Of a stretch of DNA of 64,000 bases, positions 32,096 to 41,545 are shown piece after piece; within the stretch, counting starts at the first letter, position 1; each line of letters begins with the position of its first letter. The notes under the pieces were generated by a model. That model had not been told where the DNA came from. It was given only the letters and a program-made list of their open reading frames with translations, and ran no database searches. Position numbers and translations under genes: made by a program. The DNA comes from Roseibacillus sp. (GTDB lineage Bacteria > Verrucomicrobiota > Verrucomicrobiia > Verrucomicrobiales > Akkermansiaceae). The stretch lies in NCBI GenBank assembly GCA_965242925.1, contig CBDEUM010000022.1, positions 64,001-128,000 of the forward strand, written 5' to 3'.

Positions 32096-33583
32096 TCACT
32101 CCTTCCCCGCATCCTTCCGCTGCTGGATGAGGAACTCAAGCCGTCGAAGTTCCTCTCCCACCTCGCGCAGGTCGGCGGTGGCAAGATCATAGGAAGCCTT
32201 GGCCGCCCCAAGGGCCTCCACGGCTTTCCTGGAGGCCGCGTCGTCCTTCTCCTTCTGGACCTTCGCCTGGACAACTCGTTCTTCCGCCGTGCGCACCAGG
32301 CGCTGGGTGGCCTTGACGCGCCCCTCATGACGCCGCTGGATGGCACGCGCCTGGTTGACAATGCGCTCCGCATTCTGCTTTAGCCGTTCCGCATTGCGGA
32401 CCTGCTGTTCCCAGTTCCGCCGCTGGGCCGCATCCTCGCGTGGAATGGCATCTCCCCTCTTCCTTGTTTCCTCGATCTTCTGCTCCGCCTGCTTTACCGC
32501 CTCCAATTTTTTCTCGATGTCCTCGGCGGCCCGCTGGACCATCCTTTCATCCTGCTCCACCCGCCGGGACTTCTCCTTCACCTGTGCCTGCATGCGGGCC
32601 ACGTTGCCCACCCCACGGGCGGCACCAGCCTTCAAGCGGGTGGCAATCTGCTGGGCCCGGATCCATTCCGCCTTGGCCTCGTTCATGGCTGCTTCCCGTC
32701 GGGTCCGTTCCTCGCTCATCCCGGCAAGAGCCCCGGCAAACTCTGCGGGGGTGGCCTTCTCGCCCAGGGCTGCCGCAGCCAGTGGCCGTTCCGGCTCAAG
32801 GGAGAGCCAGCGGGAACGGAATAATTCCATCAGGGGCTGCGCGCTCTCCTTCCGGATTCCCGAGAGCTCGTCCCTTCCTATGCGAAAATCGCGATAGGGC
32901 GAGTGCGGCAGGATCACGCCACCCTCTGCAAGAAGGATCTCCCTGCACCGCAGTCGCGACCCATCGGCCAGAAAGAGCGACCAACCCTCCAACACTCCGG
33001 TCACGGGCGCCCGCAGGACCACTGCCATCGCTTCCGTCCGCACCGAAAAGGACTTCCGCCCCAGGAGGAGGGACTCGACAGTCACCCGCCCCTCTGCCAA
33101 TCCGACCACGCGACCTTCCATGAAATCGCCGTCACGCAGGAAAACGCCCTGCCGGTCGAAACGCAGCGCCGCGGCGTCCCGCGATCGCAGGGGCTGAAAG
33201 AAAAGGGCGGTGGTATTCTGCCTGGTCAGCAGCAGGGTTTCATCCTGCGGTGCGAAGGTCACTACCTTCCCGTCCATCTTCACCGCCGCCCGGGCCAGGA
33301 AACTGCCATTGGTGGTAAGCACTCCGGTTCCACCGATGCGCCACTGCTGGTCCTCGCCCTTGAGATCCAGGGAGGCAAGGTCTGTCAGCGCAATACGCGC
33401 CCTTTCACCAACCTCGCTCACCACCTCGACGGCATCGCCGCCCTGAAAAATAACCGTCCCTTTTCTCGTCTCCCCCTTGGTGGTGGTCACCACATCAGCC
33501 CATGCCCCGGCGGACAGCCCCAACAGCGCCACCACCACGGAAGCGAACCTCACCCTCGCTGGCGCTTTCTGGGACAAGCTCAT
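32096..33583 (-). CDS. Secreted hypothetical protein with repeated small beta modules and a long C-terminal coiled coil
   Basis: Signal peptide; modules such as LRDGDFMEGRVVG; an R/E/Q/A-rich helical C-terminal region of about 200 aa. Confidence 0.7.
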   Translation of the reverse strand: MSLSQKAPARVRFASVVVALLGLSAGAWADVVTTTKGETRKGTVIFQGGDAVEVVSEVGERARIALTDLASLDLKGEDQQWRIGGTGVLTTNGSFLARAAVKMDGKVVTFAPQDETLLLTRQNTTALFFQPLRSRDAAALRFDRQGVFLRDGDFMEGRVVGLAEGRVTVESLLLGRKSFSVRTEAMAVVLRAPVTGVLEGWSLFLADGSRLRCREILLAEGGVILPHSPYRDFRIGRDELSGIRKESAQPLMELFRSRWLSLEPERPLAAAALGEKATPAEFAGALAGMSEERTRREAAMNEAKAEWIRAQQIATRLKAGAARGVGNVARMQAQVKEKSRRVEQDERMVQRAAEDIEKKLEAVKQAEQKIEETRKRGDAIPREDAAQRRNWEQQVRNAERLKQNAERIVNQARAIQRRHEGRVKATQRLVRTAEERVVQAKVQKEKDDAASRKAVEALGAAKASYDLATADLREVGEELRRLEFLIQQRKDAGKE

Positions 33584-34017
33584 TTTTGTTCCTTCTCAAT
33601 CAAGACAATATACTGCCTGCCCTCCTGCTCAAGCTGTTCAGCCGATTTTGATCTCTGCCGCCGGGACCAGGACCACCAGAGATTCATGTAGTAGAGCATC
33701 ATGAATCCGATCAATCCGGAAAAGGCGGCAAAAAGCAGGGAAGGTGCCACGAAGTCACCTCCAATTACAATCCCGACGATTAGCGCCACCAAGGTGAGCC
33801 CCAGAAGACCAACCATCACCGGTTTGGTCCTGGCTGGATTGAACATCGAAGACTGACAACGCACACAACTCATCTTCTCATACGTATCATCACTGTTGGC
33901 CCTGTAGGTTCTCCAAGTGAGGTGATCAAATTCATTATGGGCCTTGCACCGGTAGCACCAGTATCTCTTGGAGTCCGGCACAAGCGGGCTCCTCTCGAGT
34001 GGCTCCTCTCCGGTCAT
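33580..34017 (-). CDS. Small membrane protein with a zinc-ribbon-like N-terminus
   Basis: CYRC...CVRC, then two TM helices; 4-bp overlap with the downstream gene; start at ATG 34017 supported by an adjacent promoter motif. Confidence 0.65.
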   Translation of the reverse strand: MTGEEPLERSPLVPDSKRYWCYRCKAHNEFDHLTWRTYRANSDDTYEKMSCVRCQSSMFNPARTKPVMVGLLGLTLVALIVGIVIGGDFVAPSLLFAAFSGLIGFMMLYYMNLWWSWSRRQRSKSAEQLEQEGRQYIVLIEKEQK

Positions 34018-34025
34018 TCCAACCC

Positions 34026-34054
34026 ACTCTAACGAACCGCCCCCCACGGGGCAA
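34026..34054 (-). promoter_or_regulatory. Putative leaderless-type promoter TTGCCC-N17-TAGAGT-N8-ATG(34017)
   Basis: Canonical 17-nt spacing, read directly from the minus strand. Confidence 0.55.
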
Positions 34055-34094
34055 CTCCCAGCCTCCATTTCCATCAGCAGGTCCCGGGAGACCG

Positions 34095-37000
34095 CTACCT
34101 GCCCTCCGCCTGCAGCTTCTGCACCATTTCAAGGGCCTTGCGAGCCGGTTCGAGATCCGGTTCCAGCTTCAGCGCCTCCTCCAGCATGCCCGCCGCCGCT
34201 CCCAGGTTCCCGTAACTCGCCAGCATGGTCCCGTAATCAAGATAGAACTCCGCCTGCGGTTCGAGGGCGAGGGCGCGCTCGAAGTGTGCCGCCGCCCGTT
34301 CCGCCTGCCGTTGCGCCTTGTATTTTTTCCCCCTCTCGTGGTGTCGGCGGGCGATCCCAGATTCGAGAGCCACCCGCCGACTGCCACTCGCCTGCTCATG
34401 GGCGGCTTCCAGGAAATAGAGCGCCTCTTCCGGAAGGCGCTCCTCGAATTGCCGTGCCATGAATTCCAACGCGTAGACCGGATCCACCGGCTTGGTAAAC
34501 CATCGCCCTGCCAGCGGAGGGGCCCAGGTGTGCCACCTCTCTCCATCCGCCGCACGAAGCGCCTTCAAATCCGCCTCGATGACAGCCGCCTCGAGCGATC
34601 CGCGGTAGATTCCCATCACTTCCCCCCCGCCCCCGCAGAGGAAGGCCATCGGAACGGTCATGGGAACGCTCACATCAAAGAGGGCCCGCTGAAATTCGTG
34701 CAGAGAGGCCAGCGAGGAACCCTCGAGGCTTCCCCACTCAAAGGGCCAACGCACTTCCTCCATCACGCCTGCTGCCTTCTCGCGTAATTCTTCTCCGTCC
34801 ACGTTGAGAGCGACAACCAGCGGCAACCCCATCACCCGATACATCCCAGCCGCCCGGGCCATGAGTCCCAACTCGCGCCTCGAAACCGGACAGTCCGCCG
34901 ACCAGAGCACAACCAGCTGGGGCGCCCCCTGGCCCATGAGCAGTCCCGGCTCTCCATCCGCACTCCTGAAGTCCAAAGGCGGGAGCAGAATCCTGGCCGG
35001 AGGGTTGATTCGGGCGGTGTCATCCCGACCTGCCAGAGACGGCGTCGCCGGAGTGGTCGCAATCGATCGGGGCGCTCTCTCTACCGGCACAGCCCCGCCA
35101 CTACCCTGCTTCAGGCGAAAGGCTCCCCCTGCCCCCAATCCTCCAAATTCCTCCACCTTGCCTCCCGGCCAGATCACCCGTGCCCTGCTCACCTTCCCGG
35201 GCTGTCCCAGTCCGAAATGCAGCCAGCGACTCGACTGCGACAGGAACAGATCCCCCGCCCGGACGGACCTGACGGATCGCACAGTCCCCGCCGCTCCCCC
35301 CGCCATCAGTTCGACCACCGCGCCAATGGCATTACGGTTGCACTCGCTGCCCTCAAGAAGCAGGGCCACAGAATCCCCCGTGTGTGTCGAGTTGTGTGAA
35401 TTCAGCATCAATCGCAGGCGGGGCGCGGTCCGGTCACGATACCAGAGGTCCAGATCGCCGTCCTGGTCCCAGTCCACCACCGCAAGCGCCCGTCCGTCGC
35501 CATCCTGATCCAGTCCGATTACCGAAGACACATCGGCAAATCCCCCCACCCGGTCGTTGAGAAGGCACCGGTTGCGTTCGCGTCCGCTCCACGAGCGCCC
35601 GTCCCGCACCATCTGCAGGAGAGCCGTCCAGGCATTGCCATAGATTCGAGGGTCGGCCTGCTGCTTCGGCGACACGACCTGCCGCCAGAAGAAACTTCAC
35701 AGATCATCAGGCTCCCGACCGGTGAGGAACCCGTTTGAAATCACCAGGTCCTCCCATCCATCGTTGTTGAGATCCCCGAAACCCGAACTCCAGGCCCACT
35801 GGCCCAGATGACTCCGGGTCGCTTCACTCACATCCTGGAATTTAGTTCCCTTCTCGCCCTGACCTCCCGCAAAGAGCGAATTTCCCCGGGCCATCCTCCG
35901 CAGATCTCCCACCAGCGCGGCATCGGCACCCTCCTTGAAGAACTCCTGCCGGCTCACCCGGTTCCCCGCCGCCGAAAACATGTTTCCCACGTAAAGGTCC
36001 GGGGCTCCGTCCCGGTTATAGTCGCCCCACGCCACCGACATTCCGGACGCCATATCCTCCAACTGCAACGCACCCGCAATTTGCCGGAAGTGCCCCCCCT
36101 CATTCCGGTAGAAGCAATTCCGACCGAAATCGTTGGCCACATAGAGATCCGGGTCGCCATCCCGGTCGTAGTCCTCCCAGGCCGCTCCAAAACTCCACCG
36201 GGTATTGTCGACGCCCAGGCCCACTGCTTCCGTGGCATCCGCAAACCCGAACATCCCGAGGTTTTTCAACAGGACGTTGCGCCCACCGTTCTCAGCATCA
36301 TTAAAGGGGAGAGGGGCTCTCACCTCGAATCCCCGCCGTTCCGCGTTGTCCCCCGCACTGTAGACACAGACATAAATATCCAGCAATCCGTCACTGTCGA
36401 AATCGGCCGCGCTCAGGGAGAAGGGATAACGCGCGCCCGGATGGCCACCCCGCAGGCTGAAAATTCCAGTGCCGTCGTTCTCCAGGAAGACGACCATTGC
36501 GATGGTTGCTACCACCAGGTCCTCGTCCCCGTCATTGTCGAGATCGACCAGCAGCGCGCTTCGTGAATCTTCCAGCCAGTTCACTCCCGCTTCGGCCGAG
36601 GTCTCCTCCACCGTGCCATCGGGCTGCTGGACATACAGCCGGTTCGGCAGACTTCCCGCGTCACAGACGTAGAGGTCCTCAAGTCCATCCCCATTGACGT
36701 CTCCCACCGCCAGTCCGTGATGCCCTGTCAGCGAAAAATCTCCCAGTCGTGTCAGCCTGGTGGCCCAGTCCCCGGTTCCCCGCAGAACCTGCTCACGGTA
36801 ATGGGGCGTCCCGCCCAGCACGACCGGCCCAACATCGACGAATCCCTGTCCCGGCTTTCTAACCAGGGACTCTTCATAGTGCCGCACCTGGAGAGATGCC
36901 AGCCGCGGAGGATCCTCCAGGGTCCAGCGAGTATACCACGAGGTAGTGACCTGGCGACGGAAGACTCCATCCGCTTCCCCGCTTCTCAACTCCACCATCA

Positions 37001-37619
37001 CCTCCGCGGAAAACCCTGAATCAAGTTCCTGCCCCGCCAGCACCTTGACCGACATGTCGGGAACCACGTCCGGAGCCCCCTTCCCCAACCAGTCAGCGCG
37101 GGTTGCCGCAAAGCCCTCCCACCCGTGATGGCTCTCCGCGTCGACAAGGGACTCCTCCGGGCGCAGGAACTGAATACCCCCGTGATTCTCCACCTCTTTG
37201 AGTCTGGCGGGACGCAGATCCGAACAGACGAAACTCTCCGCCAGCATTCCTGCCTCACCTGAAGCAAATAAGGCGTGCAACCTCCGGACCACCGCCGCGC
37301 TTCGGTTCTCGGATTCCCATTCCCTCCCCGGTTCCAGCTTCTCCAGCTCGGCCTCGATTCCCCCGGGTTCCGGGCGCCGCGAGCTCTGAACGGGGGTCCC
37401 CGCCACCACCCGCAGCACTCCCGATTCCTTGCCTCCCGGGCTTTCCCCCCGAACCTGGAGGGCCACCAACTCATCATCAAGGTCCAATGGCAGAGGCCTG
37501 GAATCACTCACCCCCGACTCCTGCAGAGGATCCCGGCCGGACGCCTCCTTCCTGTCACACCCCCCCAGACCCCACCCCAGCACACTTGTGGCGAAGACGA
37601 GAAAGAGACGAGCCGACAT
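34095..37619 (-). CDS. FG-GAP/VCBS (CRTAC1-like) + ASPIC/UnbV + redoxin-like + TPR lipoprotein with an in-frame TGA at 35697-35699 (candidate selenoprotein, ~1174 aa)
   Basis: ORFs 35697-37673 and 34095-35675 share a frame and are separated by one TGA (DDL*SFFWRQVVSP). FG-GAP repeats occur on both sides (GDLNNDGWEDL before, VDWDQDGDLDL after). Lipobox-like LGGC; LSQSSRWLHFGLG (UnbV); LWSADCPVS; C-terminal TPRs; SECIS-like hairpin directly after the TGA. Confidence 0.75.
35664..35699 (-). promoter_or_regulatory. UGA followed by a bacterial SECIS-like stem-loop
   Basis: mRNA reads UGA-AGUUU-CUUC-U-GGCGGCA-GGUCG-UGUCGCC-GAAG: a 4-bp lower stem, a bulged U, a 7-bp upper stem and a 5-nt loop beginning GG, with 17 nt between the UGA and the loop. 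Confidence 0.7.
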
Positions 37620-37641
37620 CGGACGGAACAATCGTTTTTTC

Positions 37642-38982
37642 CTACAACGCGAGTGCCTCCCTGGCCTCTGCAAAAGCCCCGGCTGGAACTCCCATCCGCT
37701 GCATCATGGCGAGGTGGAGGCGCGACATGGACGTAGCACGCCAGGGCTTGAGATAACGTCCGGTCCTGAGCGTTCCATCTCCTCCACCTGCGAGCAGCAC
37801 AGGCAGATCCTTTTCCGCATGCTCATCTCCGTCAGCAATGCTCGACCCGTAGACAATCATCGAGCGCTCCAGCACACTCACCCCGTCTCCATCCTTGAGC
37901 TCCTTGAGCCGATCCAGGAACCAGGCCAATTGGGCGTGATGCCAACTGGTCACCTCGTTATACTGTTCCTTCTTGCTACGGACGCTGTCCCACTCCGTGA
38001 TCCCGTCGTCGTCTTCCGTCCGCCCACTGGCATTCTTCCAGTGTGAAAGGGCATGCCAGGTCCCCTTTACACCGGGCAGAAAGTTGAAGTAGCGGTTGCT
38101 CTGCCCGTGATCCAGCATGCAGGTCGAGACCCGCGTCGCCCCGGACCAGAATGCCAGGGCCATCAAGTCGAGCAATTGCCGCACATACTCCTCATGGCTG
38201 GCCGGGATTCCCGGCTTGGGACGTCTCAGGGTATCGGTCAGCGCATTATCCGCTCCGAGGCGTCTGCTCTGTTCCTCCGCAAAGGCAAGGCGCTTTTCGA
38301 TCGCCCGCACCGCCTCGAGATACTCGTCTATCTTCCGTTGGTCAGCCCCGCTGGCACGGCGTTTGAGATCCTTCGACTGGGCCAGGACCTGATCGATTAC
38401 GCTCTTGTCCACGAACCCTTCCTTCGCCTTCCGGAAAAGCTTGTCAAAGATGGCTCGCGGAACCGTCTCACGCACCGCAGGCACGTCGCGTGCCGTCCAC
38501 GACAGGCAGTTGCGGGAAAGACTTCCAGAAAAACTACCCTCTCCTGCAGTGCTCATTTCGAGAGACGGGAGGGGCGAACCGTCAGACAGGTGACGCGCCA
38601 CCAGTTGATCAACCGAGGGCCCACCCACGTCATTCCTCCGCCGGTCATAGGACCCGCCGGTGAGCCAGGTCGCCGTCCCCGCTCCATGCCCGTTGCCCCG
38701 GGGAGTCCACAGGTTCCGGGTCACGATCAGATCTTCCTTGTGATCCTCCAACGGGGCCATCCATTCATTAAGTTGCTCGAGTTTACCGTCGGATCCGACC
38801 TTGCGGGGAGTCCAGGAACCCTTGGACGAGCCGTTGGGAAAGTAGAGGTAGGCCAACCGCGTGGCCGAATCAGATCCGCCTGCCGCTGCCGGGACGGGCG
38901 CTCCCAGACTCTCCAGAGTGGGCAGGAATAGACAGGCTCCAGCTCCCCGCAGGAAGGCGCGCCGGTTGGAGGGCAGATTCAT
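37642..38982 (-). CDS. DUF1552 (HXXSHH) family protein with Tat signal
   Basis: NRRAFLRGAGACLFLPTLESL, YLYFPNG, SVDQLVA, KIDEYLEAVRAIEKR, WHALSHW and LPVLLAG motifs. Confidence 0.88.
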   Translation of the reverse strand: MNLPSNRRAFLRGAGACLFLPTLESLGAPVPAAAGGSDSATRLAYLYFPNGSSKGSWTPRKVGSDGKLEQLNEWMAPLEDHKEDLIVTRNLWTPRGNGHGAGTATWLTGGSYDRRRNDVGGPSVDQLVARHLSDGSPLPSLEMSTAGEGSFSGSLSRNCLSWTARDVPAVRETVPRAIFDKLFRKAKEGFVDKSVIDQVLAQSKDLKRRASGADQRKIDEYLEAVRAIEKRLAFAEEQSRRLGADNALTDTLRRPKPGIPASHEEYVRQLLDLMALAFWSGATRVSTCMLDHGQSNRYFNFLPGVKGTWHALSHWKNASGRTEDDDGITEWDSVRSKKEQYNEVTSWHHAQLAWFLDRLKELKDGDGVSVLERSMIVYGSSIADGDEHAEKDLPVLLAGGGDGTLRTGRYLKPWRATSMSRLHLAMMQRMGVPAGAFAEAREALAL

Positions 38983-41465
38983 TCTTTGCTGGAAGGCGAT
39001 GAGGCGTTCAGACTTGTGGGCAGCCGCCGTGTGGCAAACGGGTAACTCCCTGCAATTTCCCTTAGCATGGCACCCATCGGATAACCAGCGGGTTTCAACG
39101 TGGCCGCAATCGCGCGCACGGTCGCTTCATCATAATACTCCAGTTGACGGCCCAGCGCGTAAGCCAGCATCTTACGGATGACCTGGGTTCCCAGATCGTC
39201 GAGACGCCACTCCCGGAGCGCAATCTTCAAGCCTTCGGGACCACGGAACTTCGCGCCATTTGGCAGCGTTCCCCGGTTGTCCACCCCTGAGCGCCACTGC
39301 CCGAACTCCGCATAGTTCTCCAGGGCAAACCCCAGCGGGTCTATCCGGGAGTGACACCCAGCACAGCGGGCCGACCGGCGATGACCCTCCAGCTGCTGCC
39401 GCAGGTTGCGAACGCCCTCCCGGCCTCTCTCCTCCACATCAATCTCCGGCACGTCCGGCGGAGGCGGAGGCGGAGGCGTTCCCAGCAGGGTGGTGAGGAT
39501 CCATGTTCCCCGCACCACCGGACTGGTGCGATCAGGAAAGGAGGTGGCAGCCAGAACGCTGGCATGCCCCAGGACACCTCCACGACGGGAGGTCTCCAGT
39601 CGGACCCTCCGCATCGCTTCACCCTTTACGCCCGGGATGCGATAGAAACGCGCCAGTTCCTCATTGAGGAAGGTGTAATCAGTATCGATCAGACCCACCA
39701 CCGGGGCATTTTCCACAATGAGCGAGTGCACGAACCAGGCCGTCTCATCACGCATGGCTTTCATCAGGGATTCCGTGCACCAGGGATTGTCGATGGGATC
39801 CTTGCGGATGCGCGGACCGACATTGTGGGTCCCCAGCCACTCCCCCGCAAAAATCTCGCCAAGAGCCAGGCTGCGAGAATCCGCGAGCATGCGCACGACC
39901 TGCTCCTCGCGGCCGTCCCGGCGAACCAACTGCCCTGCCTCTGCCGCGGCCAACAGTGCCCCATCCGGCGTGGAGGCCCAGAGGAAGTACGACAGACGTG
40001 AGGCCAGATCGCGGGCCGACACCGTCCCATCCTCACCGGGTGGCCCCGCCTCTTCGACCCGCAGGAGAAAGCGGGGTGAGATGAGGACAAACTTGAACGC
40101 AGCCGCGAGGGCATCGTCCTCCGAACAACCCGCCCTTCGAGCCTGTTCGAATTGATCAACCACCTCGGTAAACTCCGCTTTGCCGGGCTCCCATCGGTAA
40201 GCCAGGCGCACGAACTTCCGGAGGGTCTCCTCACTATCGGCTCCGCCTCGCAGGGCAGCCCAGGCAGTGGGGTTTCCGCGCACCGCCTCAATGACCAGTT
40301 CCGCCGAGGTCAGGTAGCGATCAAGATGTGCGGTTGCCAGGAACAGGGTGTTGGTACTATTGGAGAATCCACTCGTCCCACTGAAGTCGGCCGGAAACTG
40401 GTCGGCGGGACGCAGGTCGAGGCCAACCAGATCGCGGATCGTCCGGTTGTATTCCTCCCGGGTGAGCCGCCGCGCCTGCAGGTATCCAGGATTGCGCACC
40501 TGATCGTATGGGAATTGCTCGATTTCCTGGCGCAGCCAGGCGCGCAGACGCAGCCTGTCCTCCCCGGACGGCTGCGGCTTCTTCCGAGGGGGCATGTCCC
40601 CGTTCCGGATTCGTTCCGCCACATTCTCCCAGAGCAGCCGGTTACGCACGAGCGGCTTCTGCGAGAGCGCCTTCTCCAGGTCGAGATCTCCCTTGGCACT
40701 GGCTGTGTCATGACAATCAAAACAGTAGGTCTCCAGGGTTGTGACCACGTGCTTGTCGAACTGGAACGTCACCCCTTCCAGCTCATCCGGACGCTCCTTC
40801 CCTTGCGCTGGAGGTGGCGTATAGATTGCCCCCCCCTGATCGGGCTCTCCTTCCGGGTCCGGATCCTCCCCCCCTTCTTCGAGCTCCCCGAGAAACTCCG
40901 CGATCATTTCATTAACCGCCCGGCGAGGGTTGGCGATGCGCCACTCCAGCTCCTCCGCAAGCTCTTCGGTCTGCTCCTCATCACCCTCTTCCCGGGCCCA
41001 TTCCAACTCCTGCTTCGTGATTTCGTTTACAATCTTCCAGCGCTCCTCCATGAGGGCACGCAAGGACTCCTCGGCTATCCCTTCGGTGATTTTTTTCTCT
41101 TCATACTTCCAGGCCAGATACTCAAGAGCTGCATCATTGGCCATTTCCCCCACCATCAGGCTGGCCCACTCAACACCGTCCTCCTTCGCTTCTTCCCACT
41201 CCTCACGCATTCGCTCCACGCGCCCGTAGGCTTCCTCCAGGACTTCCTCATATCCCTTTTCCCGGGCCTCCTCAATGACCTGCCATAATCGCCCGGCATG
41301 CGCCTTGAGAAACTTCTCGTCGTCCCCCGCAAGCTCCCCGGTTGCCCATTGCGCAGTTCCTGCCAGCACCCCAAGGAGCCCGGTCAGCAGAAAACGCAAG
41401 GAGGTCACGGAAAGAACCTGACGTCTTTTGGCTCCGAGAACAACGTCAAGAACAGGGGAAGCCAT
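38979..41465 (-). CDS. Planctomycete-type cytochrome c plus DUF1587/1592/1588/1585 domain protein
   Basis: YCFDCH, MPP, RRLTREEYNRTIRDL, LASRLSYFLW, RTSPVVRGTW, CAGCHSRIDPLGFALE and YALGR motifs; start position uncertain. Confidence 0.88.
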   Translation of the reverse strand: MASPVLDVVLGAKRRQVLSVTSLRFLLTGLLGVLAGTAQWATGELAGDDEKFLKAHAGRLWQVIEEAREKGYEEVLEEAYGRVERMREEWEEAKEDGVEWASLMVGEMANDAALEYLAWKYEEKKITEGIAEESLRALMEERWKIVNEITKQELEWAREEGDEEQTEELAEELEWRIANPRRAVNEMIAEFLGELEEGGEDPDPEGEPDQGGAIYTPPPAQGKERPDELEGVTFQFDKHVVTTLETYCFDCHDTASAKGDLDLEKALSQKPLVRNRLLWENVAERIRNGDMPPRKKPQPSGEDRLRLRAWLRQEIEQFPYDQVRNPGYLQARRLTREEYNRTIRDLVGLDLRPADQFPADFSGTSGFSNSTNTLFLATAHLDRYLTSAELVIEAVRGNPTAWAALRGGADSEETLRKFVRLAYRWEPGKAEFTEVVDQFEQARRAGCSEDDALAAAFKFVLISPRFLLRVEEAGPPGEDGTVSARDLASRLSYFLWASTPDGALLAAAEAGQLVRRDGREEQVVRMLADSRSLALGEIFAGEWLGTHNVGPRIRKDPIDNPWCTESLMKAMRDETAWFVHSLIVENAPVVGLIDTDYTFLNEELARFYRIPGVKGEAMRRVRLETSRRGGVLGHASVLAATSFPDRTSPVVRGTWILTTLLGTPPPPPPPDVPEIDVEERGREGVRNLRQQLEGHRRSARCAGCHSRIDPLGFALENYAEFGQWRSGVDNRGTLPNGAKFRGPEGLKIALREWRLDDLGTQVIRKMLAYALGRQLEYYDEATVRAIAATLKPAGYPMGAMLREIAGSYPFATRRLPTSLNASSPSSKE

Positions 41466-41545
41466 GCCTCGAACGGGTCCCACGCCGTAATATTGAAGAG
41501 GGCAGGTCCGCCTTTCCACCCATCCTCCCCGGTTTGAGAGAGTGC

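Follow-up and report, generated by a model that had tools for sequence, protein, structure and literature searches.

An in-frame UGA followed by an fdhF-like hairpin very probably encodes selenocysteine in a widespread family of CRTAC1-like proteins

The DNA analyzed here, called the window below, is a stretch of 64,000 nucleotides from a Roseibacillus sp. (Verrucomicrobiota, Akkermansiaceae; GenBank assembly GCA_965242925.1, contig CBDEUM010000022.1, positions 64,001 to 128,000). On its minus strand, which carries all the features described here, two open reading frames (ORFs), 35697-37673(-) and 34095-35675(-), lie in one frame and are split by a single in-frame TGA at 35699..35697. A sequence-only reading of the window had proposed that these two apparently separate ORFs are one gene, in which the UGA is read as selenocysteine (Sec) at about residue 641 of a protein of about 1174 amino acids; that the downstream ORF has no start other than a GTG inside a hairpin; and that gene callers would split the gene. 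Translation confirms the single frame, the residue numbers and the place of the GTG. Read-through meets no other stop and gives the peptide ...NGFLTGREPDDL-U-SFFWRQVVSPKQQADPRIY..., i.e. GREPDDL-U-SFFWRQVVSPK. Counted from the ATG at 37619-37617, the whole gene spans 34095..37619(-), ends in a TAG at 34097-34095, and has exactly 1174 codons; the internal TGA (35697..35699) is codon 641, corresponding to residue 659 in P0001 numbering. The GTG at 35675-35673, which sits within the hairpin, is the sole listed start of the downstream ORF, and an NCBI protein, P0002 (678 amino acids, 99% identical), spans the N-terminal part only.

This TGA is conserved well beyond the window. The joined protein was searched against 60 related genomes as well as this one, and matched in 33 of the 61; 150 matches (35-100% identity) were listed, and a further 93 fall outside that listing. 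Exactly one TGA is present in 149 of the 150 homologues among the matches listed, and the lone homologue without it spans residues 11-596 only, upstream of the site. When each species was represented by a single genome, the search yielded 80 loci from records titled as Verrucomicrobiota (Roseibacillus, Akkermansiaceae), Planctomycetota and Acidobacteriota, with one labeled Patescibacteria. TGA occupies the same column in 87 of 93 fetched sources (L039-L130 and the window), distributed over three phyla; among the remaining six, one falls short of the site and five have sense codons (for Y, S, C, A and T), two of these five being also devoid of the motif altogether. When in-frame stops were counted in 36 homologue ranges, 32 had exactly one, a TGA, and three had none; range L079, which contained five stops and whose length was not a multiple of three, was left out. 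Homologues with a sense codon at the site are continuous proteins, and a protein search found 713 such relatives at full length, alongside the well over a hundred TGA carriers from the genome searches. Within this genome, tblastn identified 13 loci with TGA at the same column and the motif D-L-U-S-x-x-W-R; paralogues that are about 27% identical and have no such motif also have no TGA. The TGA is thus not private to this genome, as it might have been had the sequence-only reading been mistaken. Homologues with Cys at the Sec site, which that reading led one to expect, do exist, as a minority: across 83 sense-codon homologues (alignment A2), the residue at the Sec column is N in 28, S in 15, A in 14, C in 9 and D in 5, with rarer cases of H (4), E (3), G (2), and Q, R and Y (one each), and the locus L107 has TGC.

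A planctomycete homologue (L106:1462-1530) has a second in-frame TGA, which replaces a conserved Trp codon four codons past the Sec codon (IFF*RQVV); this second TGA may reflect a pseudogene or a sequence error. In a record labeled 'Patescibacteria group bacterium' (L092), a full-length homologue reads AGC (Ser) in the Sec column, and its thioredoxin motif (TDPRS) contains no Cys; faulty binning may account for the label.

Downstream of the UGA, the RNA is predicted to form a hairpin resembling a bacterial selenocysteine insertion sequence (SECIS). A 7-bp stem, GGCGGCA/UGUCGCC, with the apical loop GGUCG (35679-35675(-)) appears in both the minimum free energy and the centroid folds. Like the SECIS of Escherichia coli fdhF, this hairpin lies immediately 3' of the UGA and inside the coding sequence, and its apical loop opens with GGUC; the heptamer GCAGGUC, which the sequence-only reading had noted as common to both, is indeed present in the E. 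coli K-12 sequence (NC_000913.3). The spacing is also close, GGUC beginning 18 nucleotides past the UGA here and 19 in fdhF. The two elements differ in other respects. The A-U-closed loop has 4 nucleotides there and 5 (GGUCG) here; the conserved stem here consists of six uninterrupted pairs and has no conserved bulged U; and the protein is unrelated to formate dehydrogenase.

To describe what is conserved in this element, we used alignment A1, in which 107 places gave 88 distinct 57-nucleotide stretches, and 87 once a row mis-registered on the second TGA of L106 was dropped. The conserved core is a 6-bp stem (A1 columns 21-26 with 32-37; 35669..35685(-)) together with the apical loop. In these 87 TGA carriers, 95.6% of the stem cells are paired; sliding the partner by 1-3 columns lowers this to 17-67%. 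The observed covariation score was reached by none of 500 shuffles, and 16 cells were changed on both sides of the stem versus 2.6 expected. Pair 24-34 is AU in 36, GU in 36, CG in 9, GC in 2, UG in 1 and something else in 3, and pair 26-32 is AU in 80 and GC in 3; in the CG cases of pair 24-34, a synonymous change in an Arg codon is coupled with replacement of Ser by Ala. Synonymous sites in the element are nearly frozen (Val GTC in 81/87, Val GTG in 76/76, Ser TCG in 70/72), whereas the next Ser codon is mixed (TCA 23, TCC 13, TCT 9, TCG 5, AGT 2) and the Asp and Leu codons ahead of the TGA vary freely.

The control set came from the class to which a Terriglobia carrier belongs, where 21 of 81 sampled genomes had matches, together with three further sense-codon loci. 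All six pairs and the GGTC loop were present in 5 of 6 TGA carriers. By contrast, none of 25 sense-codon homologues had the six pairs, and only one had GGTC, even where the SFFWRQVV peptide was identical. The hairpin therefore covaries and is restricted to TGA carriers, the pattern by which the sequence-only reading had said recoding could be recognized, and these comparisons argue that it is under selection as an RNA. The same reading had drawn a longer hairpin (35664..35691(-)), extended by a lower CUUC/GAAG stem with a bulged U. Here only the upper stem and loop stand, as a structure that both folds and is conserved. The lower stem was rejected as part of the conserved element, its four positions being paired in just 21, 23, 44 and 25 of 87; it is found in this gene and its near orthologues only, and on this alignment is lineage specific.

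The joined protein has a recognizable domain order. A probable lipoprotein signal peptide, read by eye, occupies 37557..37619(-): MSARLFLVFATSVLGWGLGG, followed by C, with the lipobox L-G-G-C. Paralogues and orthologues also have a Cys behind a hydrophobic N-terminal stretch, and the protein is probably exported and lipid anchored. Next comes an FG-GAP beta-propeller of the integrin-alpha/CRTAC1 type with DxDxDG motifs (35394..36719(-), approximate), identified from Pfam (FG-GAP_3, 1.6e-39; FG-GAP, 6.5e-22), Foldseek and the structure model described below, and then a UnbV_ASPIC domain (35130..35330(-), P0001 residues 782-848; PF07593, 48 bits against a cut-off of 23.4). A TlpA/ResA-like thioredoxin-fold domain (34494..35015(-)) was found with Foldseek and with phmmer (TlpA 4txo_C, E 2.6e-4). 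Its active-site motif is C-P-V-S here (34892-34881) and CxxC in most relatives; this copy and seven near orthologues have CxxS (CPVS) and so fall short of a CxxC active site. The C terminus carries TPR repeats (34119..34367(-); Pfam TPR_9, E 1.4e-4, below the gathering score) that match SPINDLY TPR chains at E about 5e-4. NCBIfam gave TPR and DsbE matches only, all of them below threshold.

An AlphaFold2 model of P0001 residues 290-1060, built with 89 aligned sequences, has a mean predicted local distance difference test (pLDDT) score of 93.2 and a predicted TM-score (pTM) of 0.94, and is continuous across the Sec site. In the model, Sec is fragment residue 370, the first of helix 370-378 and directly after strand 365-368, and this helix would sit between propeller blades; the thioredoxin Cys is residue 639, just ahead of helix 640-651. 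Redox-active Cys or Sec residues typically stand in this position, at the start of a helix behind a strand. The best Foldseek match of the model is murine CRTAC1 (9etn_A, E 4.4e-25, TMt 0.69), and its C-terminal domain matches ResA, TlpA, StoA and DsbE chains (TMt 0.66-0.83, probability 1.00). With FG-GAP and then UnbV_ASPIC above their cut-offs and a CRTAC1-like fold, the protein belongs to the CRTAC1/ASPIC-UnbV family, and its C-terminal domain is predicted to have a thioredoxin fold of the TlpA/ResA type.

Murine CRTAC1 (PDB 9etn) shares with this protein the FG-GAP beta-propeller and the domain after it (609 columns in the Foldseek alignment; phmmer E 4.5e-8), but the two are only 16% identical, and 9etn_A (551 residues) aligned with the propeller part only, whereas the thioredoxin part matches ResA/TlpA. 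CRTAC1 is not known to be a selenoprotein, and a profile search of the PDB with A2 was dominated by TPR proteins and did not reveal the CRTAC1 residue that matches Sec. TlpA, ResA, StoA and DsbE share the fold, with a Cys at the helix N terminus, and CxxC, usually WCxPC, is present in 51 of 59 relatives; the domain here differs in being fused to a propeller and, with CPVS, in having no second Cys.

These data bear on one alternative, that the TGA is a true stop, leaving an N-terminal propeller fragment of about 640 amino acids and a C-terminal protein started from the GTG in the hairpin. Existing annotation agrees with this, in that gene callers split the gene and P0002 ends with its N-terminal part; moreover, from general knowledge of UGA recoding, termination probably competes with Sec insertion, so that some truncated product is plausible. 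A true stop would not, however, explain why a single TGA is retained in the same frame and column in 149 of the 150 homologues among the matches listed, or why sense-codon homologues are continuous. In addition, the GTG is merely the conserved Val codon of WRQVV, and the model crosses the site at high confidence. We therefore regard a true stop as very unlikely.

The sequence-only reading had proposed a search for the sel genes, and most of the machinery is present in this assembly (G000; 42 contigs, 89.87% complete, 3.18% contaminated). The genome has a tRNA-Sec (59 bits, gathering score 47; ARAGORN SeC, anticodon tca), a SelB of 653 amino acids (287.5 bits, cut-off 242) and selD; no selA was detected here, although it is present in 18 of 19 congeners. 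The selD gene (G000:C14:573853-574776, L009; 366.6 bits) carries one in-frame TGA, and SelD is itself probably a selenoprotein here. TGA ends 8 of the 12 correctly parsed paralogue genes of this genome (the window gene ends in TAG) and is otherwise an ordinary stop in it.

This last observation is pertinent to a second alternative, that the UGA is read as Trp, Gly or Cys without selenium, through a reassigned code or near-cognate read-through. Reassignment of UGA to Trp is reported for some Verrucomicrobiota in the abstract of one study (PMC13462651). Yet there is one TGA per roughly 1200 codons in these proteins, always at the same column; TGA is the terminator of 8 out of the 12 paralogue genes; the codon is followed by a dedicated hairpin whose loop is fdhF-like; and tRNA-Sec, SelB and SelD are all present. 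Decoding as a standard amino acid thus seems to us highly improbable.

The base call, which the sequence-only reading had left to be confirmed, is supported by contigs of two other studies, in which the codon is unchanged: a 4147-nucleotide contig from one (X4, record 15) covers 35673-36200 with 0 differences, and a 613-nucleotide contig from a third study (X5, record 19) covers 35613-36200 with one difference, at 36054. That the TGA marks a pseudogene or a sequencing or assembly error, as might be imagined when a metagenome-assembled genome shows one nonsense codon within a long gene, and with the second TGA of L106 in mind, has next to no probability given the agreement of X4 and X5 at the codon, its conservation over three phyla and the strong purifying selection on the flanking motif.

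Seawater metagenomes provide another view of the element. Depth at 35669-35708 is 437 versus about 9 in X4 and 1096 versus 0 in X7, implying that many other contigs in the seawater samples have just the 40-nucleotide TGA-plus-hairpin element. This jump in depth is independent evidence of nucleotide-level conservation of the element. The organism's own contigs break at 35669-35708, where the 40-nucleotide element acts like a dispersed repeat for assemblers. An oligo-dT RNA run gave exact 151-nucleotide contigs at 35299-35449 and 35497-35647; DNA carry-over is possible in that run, and it was not used as evidence.

Overall, we consider it very probable that the TGA is a selenocysteine codon and that the gene encodes one 1174-amino-acid, exported, CRTAC1-like protein with an fdhF-like SECIS. 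In this mechanism, the SECIS hairpin would recruit SelB carrying Sec-tRNA(Sec), and the ribosome would insert Sec at the UGA and continue, yielding a single protein of 1174 amino acids. Its parts would be, in order, a lipid anchor, a CRTAC1-like propeller, the UnbV/ASPIC domain, a TlpA/ResA-like domain and TPR repeats. Outside the cytoplasm, the Sec could act as a redox-active selenol, and a selenenylsulfide relay would probably connect it with the first Cys in the fused TlpA-like domain. With CxxS in this copy, the domain could not resolve a mixed bond alone. The first thioredoxin Cys (Cys1) is kept in all 59 alignable TGA carriers, 51 with CxxC and 8 with CxxS, the latter being the window gene and its near orthologues; a further 28 TGA carriers could not be aligned with this query. 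In a 126-row alignment, U is accompanied by Cys1 in 35 of 35 rows and Asn in 0 of 25, a co-occurrence that suggests a Sec-Cys relay.

Several observations weigh against this interpretation. The fold energy of the hairpin stretch is ordinary (-19.1 kcal/mol, z = -0.09), and 95 of 200 dinucleotide shuffles fold as well. Fold energy was accordingly dropped as support: because its stability is no better than that of shuffles, the hairpin alone is no evidence, and the comparative data carry the case. Rfam's curated covariance models found no relevant match in window 35400-35900 at E <= 10. In alignment A2, Cys occurs in 9 of 83 homologues, unusually few for a selenoprotein, and Asn, Ser and Ala dominate; this scarcity fits a loss of redox function, rather than a Sec-to-Cys swap, in lineages that gave up Sec. 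Four loci of this genome, representing three paralogue types (C12b/C17, C13b and C34), keep the TGA without the thioredoxin or TPR part, and Pfam searched with the thioredoxin stretch alone returned no family at E <= 0.1. As for selA, neither PF03841 nor TIGR00474 detected it in the 89.87%-complete assembly. Because 18 of the 19 congeneric genomes, among them a 95%-identical relative (G008), have it above cut-off, we infer that its absence is an assembly gap. Finally, the FastTree tree on which the coupling of Sec to Cys1 was examined showed only 8 and 10 state changes; it gave 7 independent pairs, for which the sign-test median p was 0.375. Because this independent-pairs test is non-significant, the coupling is kept as a hypothesis only.

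A bolder proposal would be that these proteins form a distinct class of extracytoplasmic selenoenzymes, with Sec at the N terminus of a propeller helix and a selenenylsulfide relay to a TlpA-type Cys. We offer it tentatively, as a possibility that is more likely wrong than right. If it were true, the family, with its 13 loci in this single genome, would account for a major and as yet uncounted need for selenium in marine Verrucomicrobiota and Planctomycetota; the Asn-plus-SxxC forms common in Acidobacteriota would be derivatives that have lost redox activity; and the conserved site would offer a first catalytic handle on what CRTAC1/ASPIC-UnbV proteins do.

The sequence-only reading had not known proteins of this family as selenoproteins, which needs some qualification: the family is not wholly without precedent, since a supplement lists four candidates, but that listing is all. 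Table S9 of Kim et al. 2016 (PLoS One, PMC4807772) contains four candidate selenoprotein genes with the same domain description, each annotated as two genes, with a SECIS detected by bSECISearch in three of the four and Gly as the homologous residue in the closest match. The passages of the main text that were consulted make no mention of these genes. They resemble the present family in domain description, and our set includes planctomycete homologues with the same TGA and hairpin; because the four genes have IMG identifiers only, they are likened by description, not by sequence. The earlier study differs in placing four genes in a supplement, with no family-level analysis, covariation, structure or distribution, and the copy described here differs in coming from a marine Akkermansiaceae/Roseibacillus-like verrucomicrobium and in its CxxS thioredoxin motif. 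None of the terms FG-GAP, ASPIC, UnbV, CRTAC, VCBS or Verrucomicrobi occurs in the main text of BSepDB (PMC13326102), of deep-Sep (PMC12013277) or of a 2026 review (PMC13188914). The supplements of BSepDB and deep-Sep contain none of these names either, although that of BSepDB was searched in a shortened form and is apparently a species list, so that absence from it proves little. A full-text literature search for selenoprotein with FG-GAP or UnbV, and for selenocysteine with ASPIC, found nothing relevant.

The comparative data strongly support a widespread, barely documented selenoprotein family whose recoding mechanism is the known one. New interest attaches to the family itself, to how large it is and to where its redox site probably lies. 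Because each member is annotated as two 'genes', databases misdescribe a large family; since the family was not found in the recent bacterial selenoprotein resources searched, selenium use in marine Verrucomicrobiota and Planctomycetota is probably underestimated. In the model, a conserved Sec by a helix N terminus and a fused TlpA-like domain point to redox chemistry in CRTAC1/ASPIC-UnbV proteins, and the Sec offers a specific residue to test in this family. The 40-nucleotide TGA-plus-hairpin element is conserved enough for use as a probe.

Some paralogues in this genome are shorter than the window gene. Proteins of about 815-855 amino acids that end after UnbV are encoded at C13:144600-149500 (L128), C34:103600-109000 (L129), C12:48300-53600 (L122) and C17:47300-52700 (L130), and two of these short types read U-S-C-L-W, with a Cys two residues past Sec. 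The pairs C28/C37 and C12b/C17 are identical or nearly so across the 120 nucleotides compared, and may be recent duplicates or assembly redundancy (contamination 3.18%). The C37 copy stops 53 codons past the Sec codon, near a contig end.

The window gene lies directly downstream of DUF1592-type and DUF1552 genes. These upstream neighbors (window 37642-41519(-)) encode a DUF1552 protein and one in which a planctomycete cytochrome c domain accompanies DUF1592/DUF1588/DUF1587/DUF1585/DUF1595; after the gene come two ORFs of unknown family, of 164 and 495 amino acids (window 32096-34074(-)). By tblastn, none of the DUF1552 gene, the 164-amino-acid ORF and the 495-amino-acid ORF lies beside this genome's paralogues. 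At orthologous loci of congeners, the same method found DUF1552 as a neighbor in 10, the 164-amino-acid ORF in 7 and the 495-amino-acid ORF in 9.

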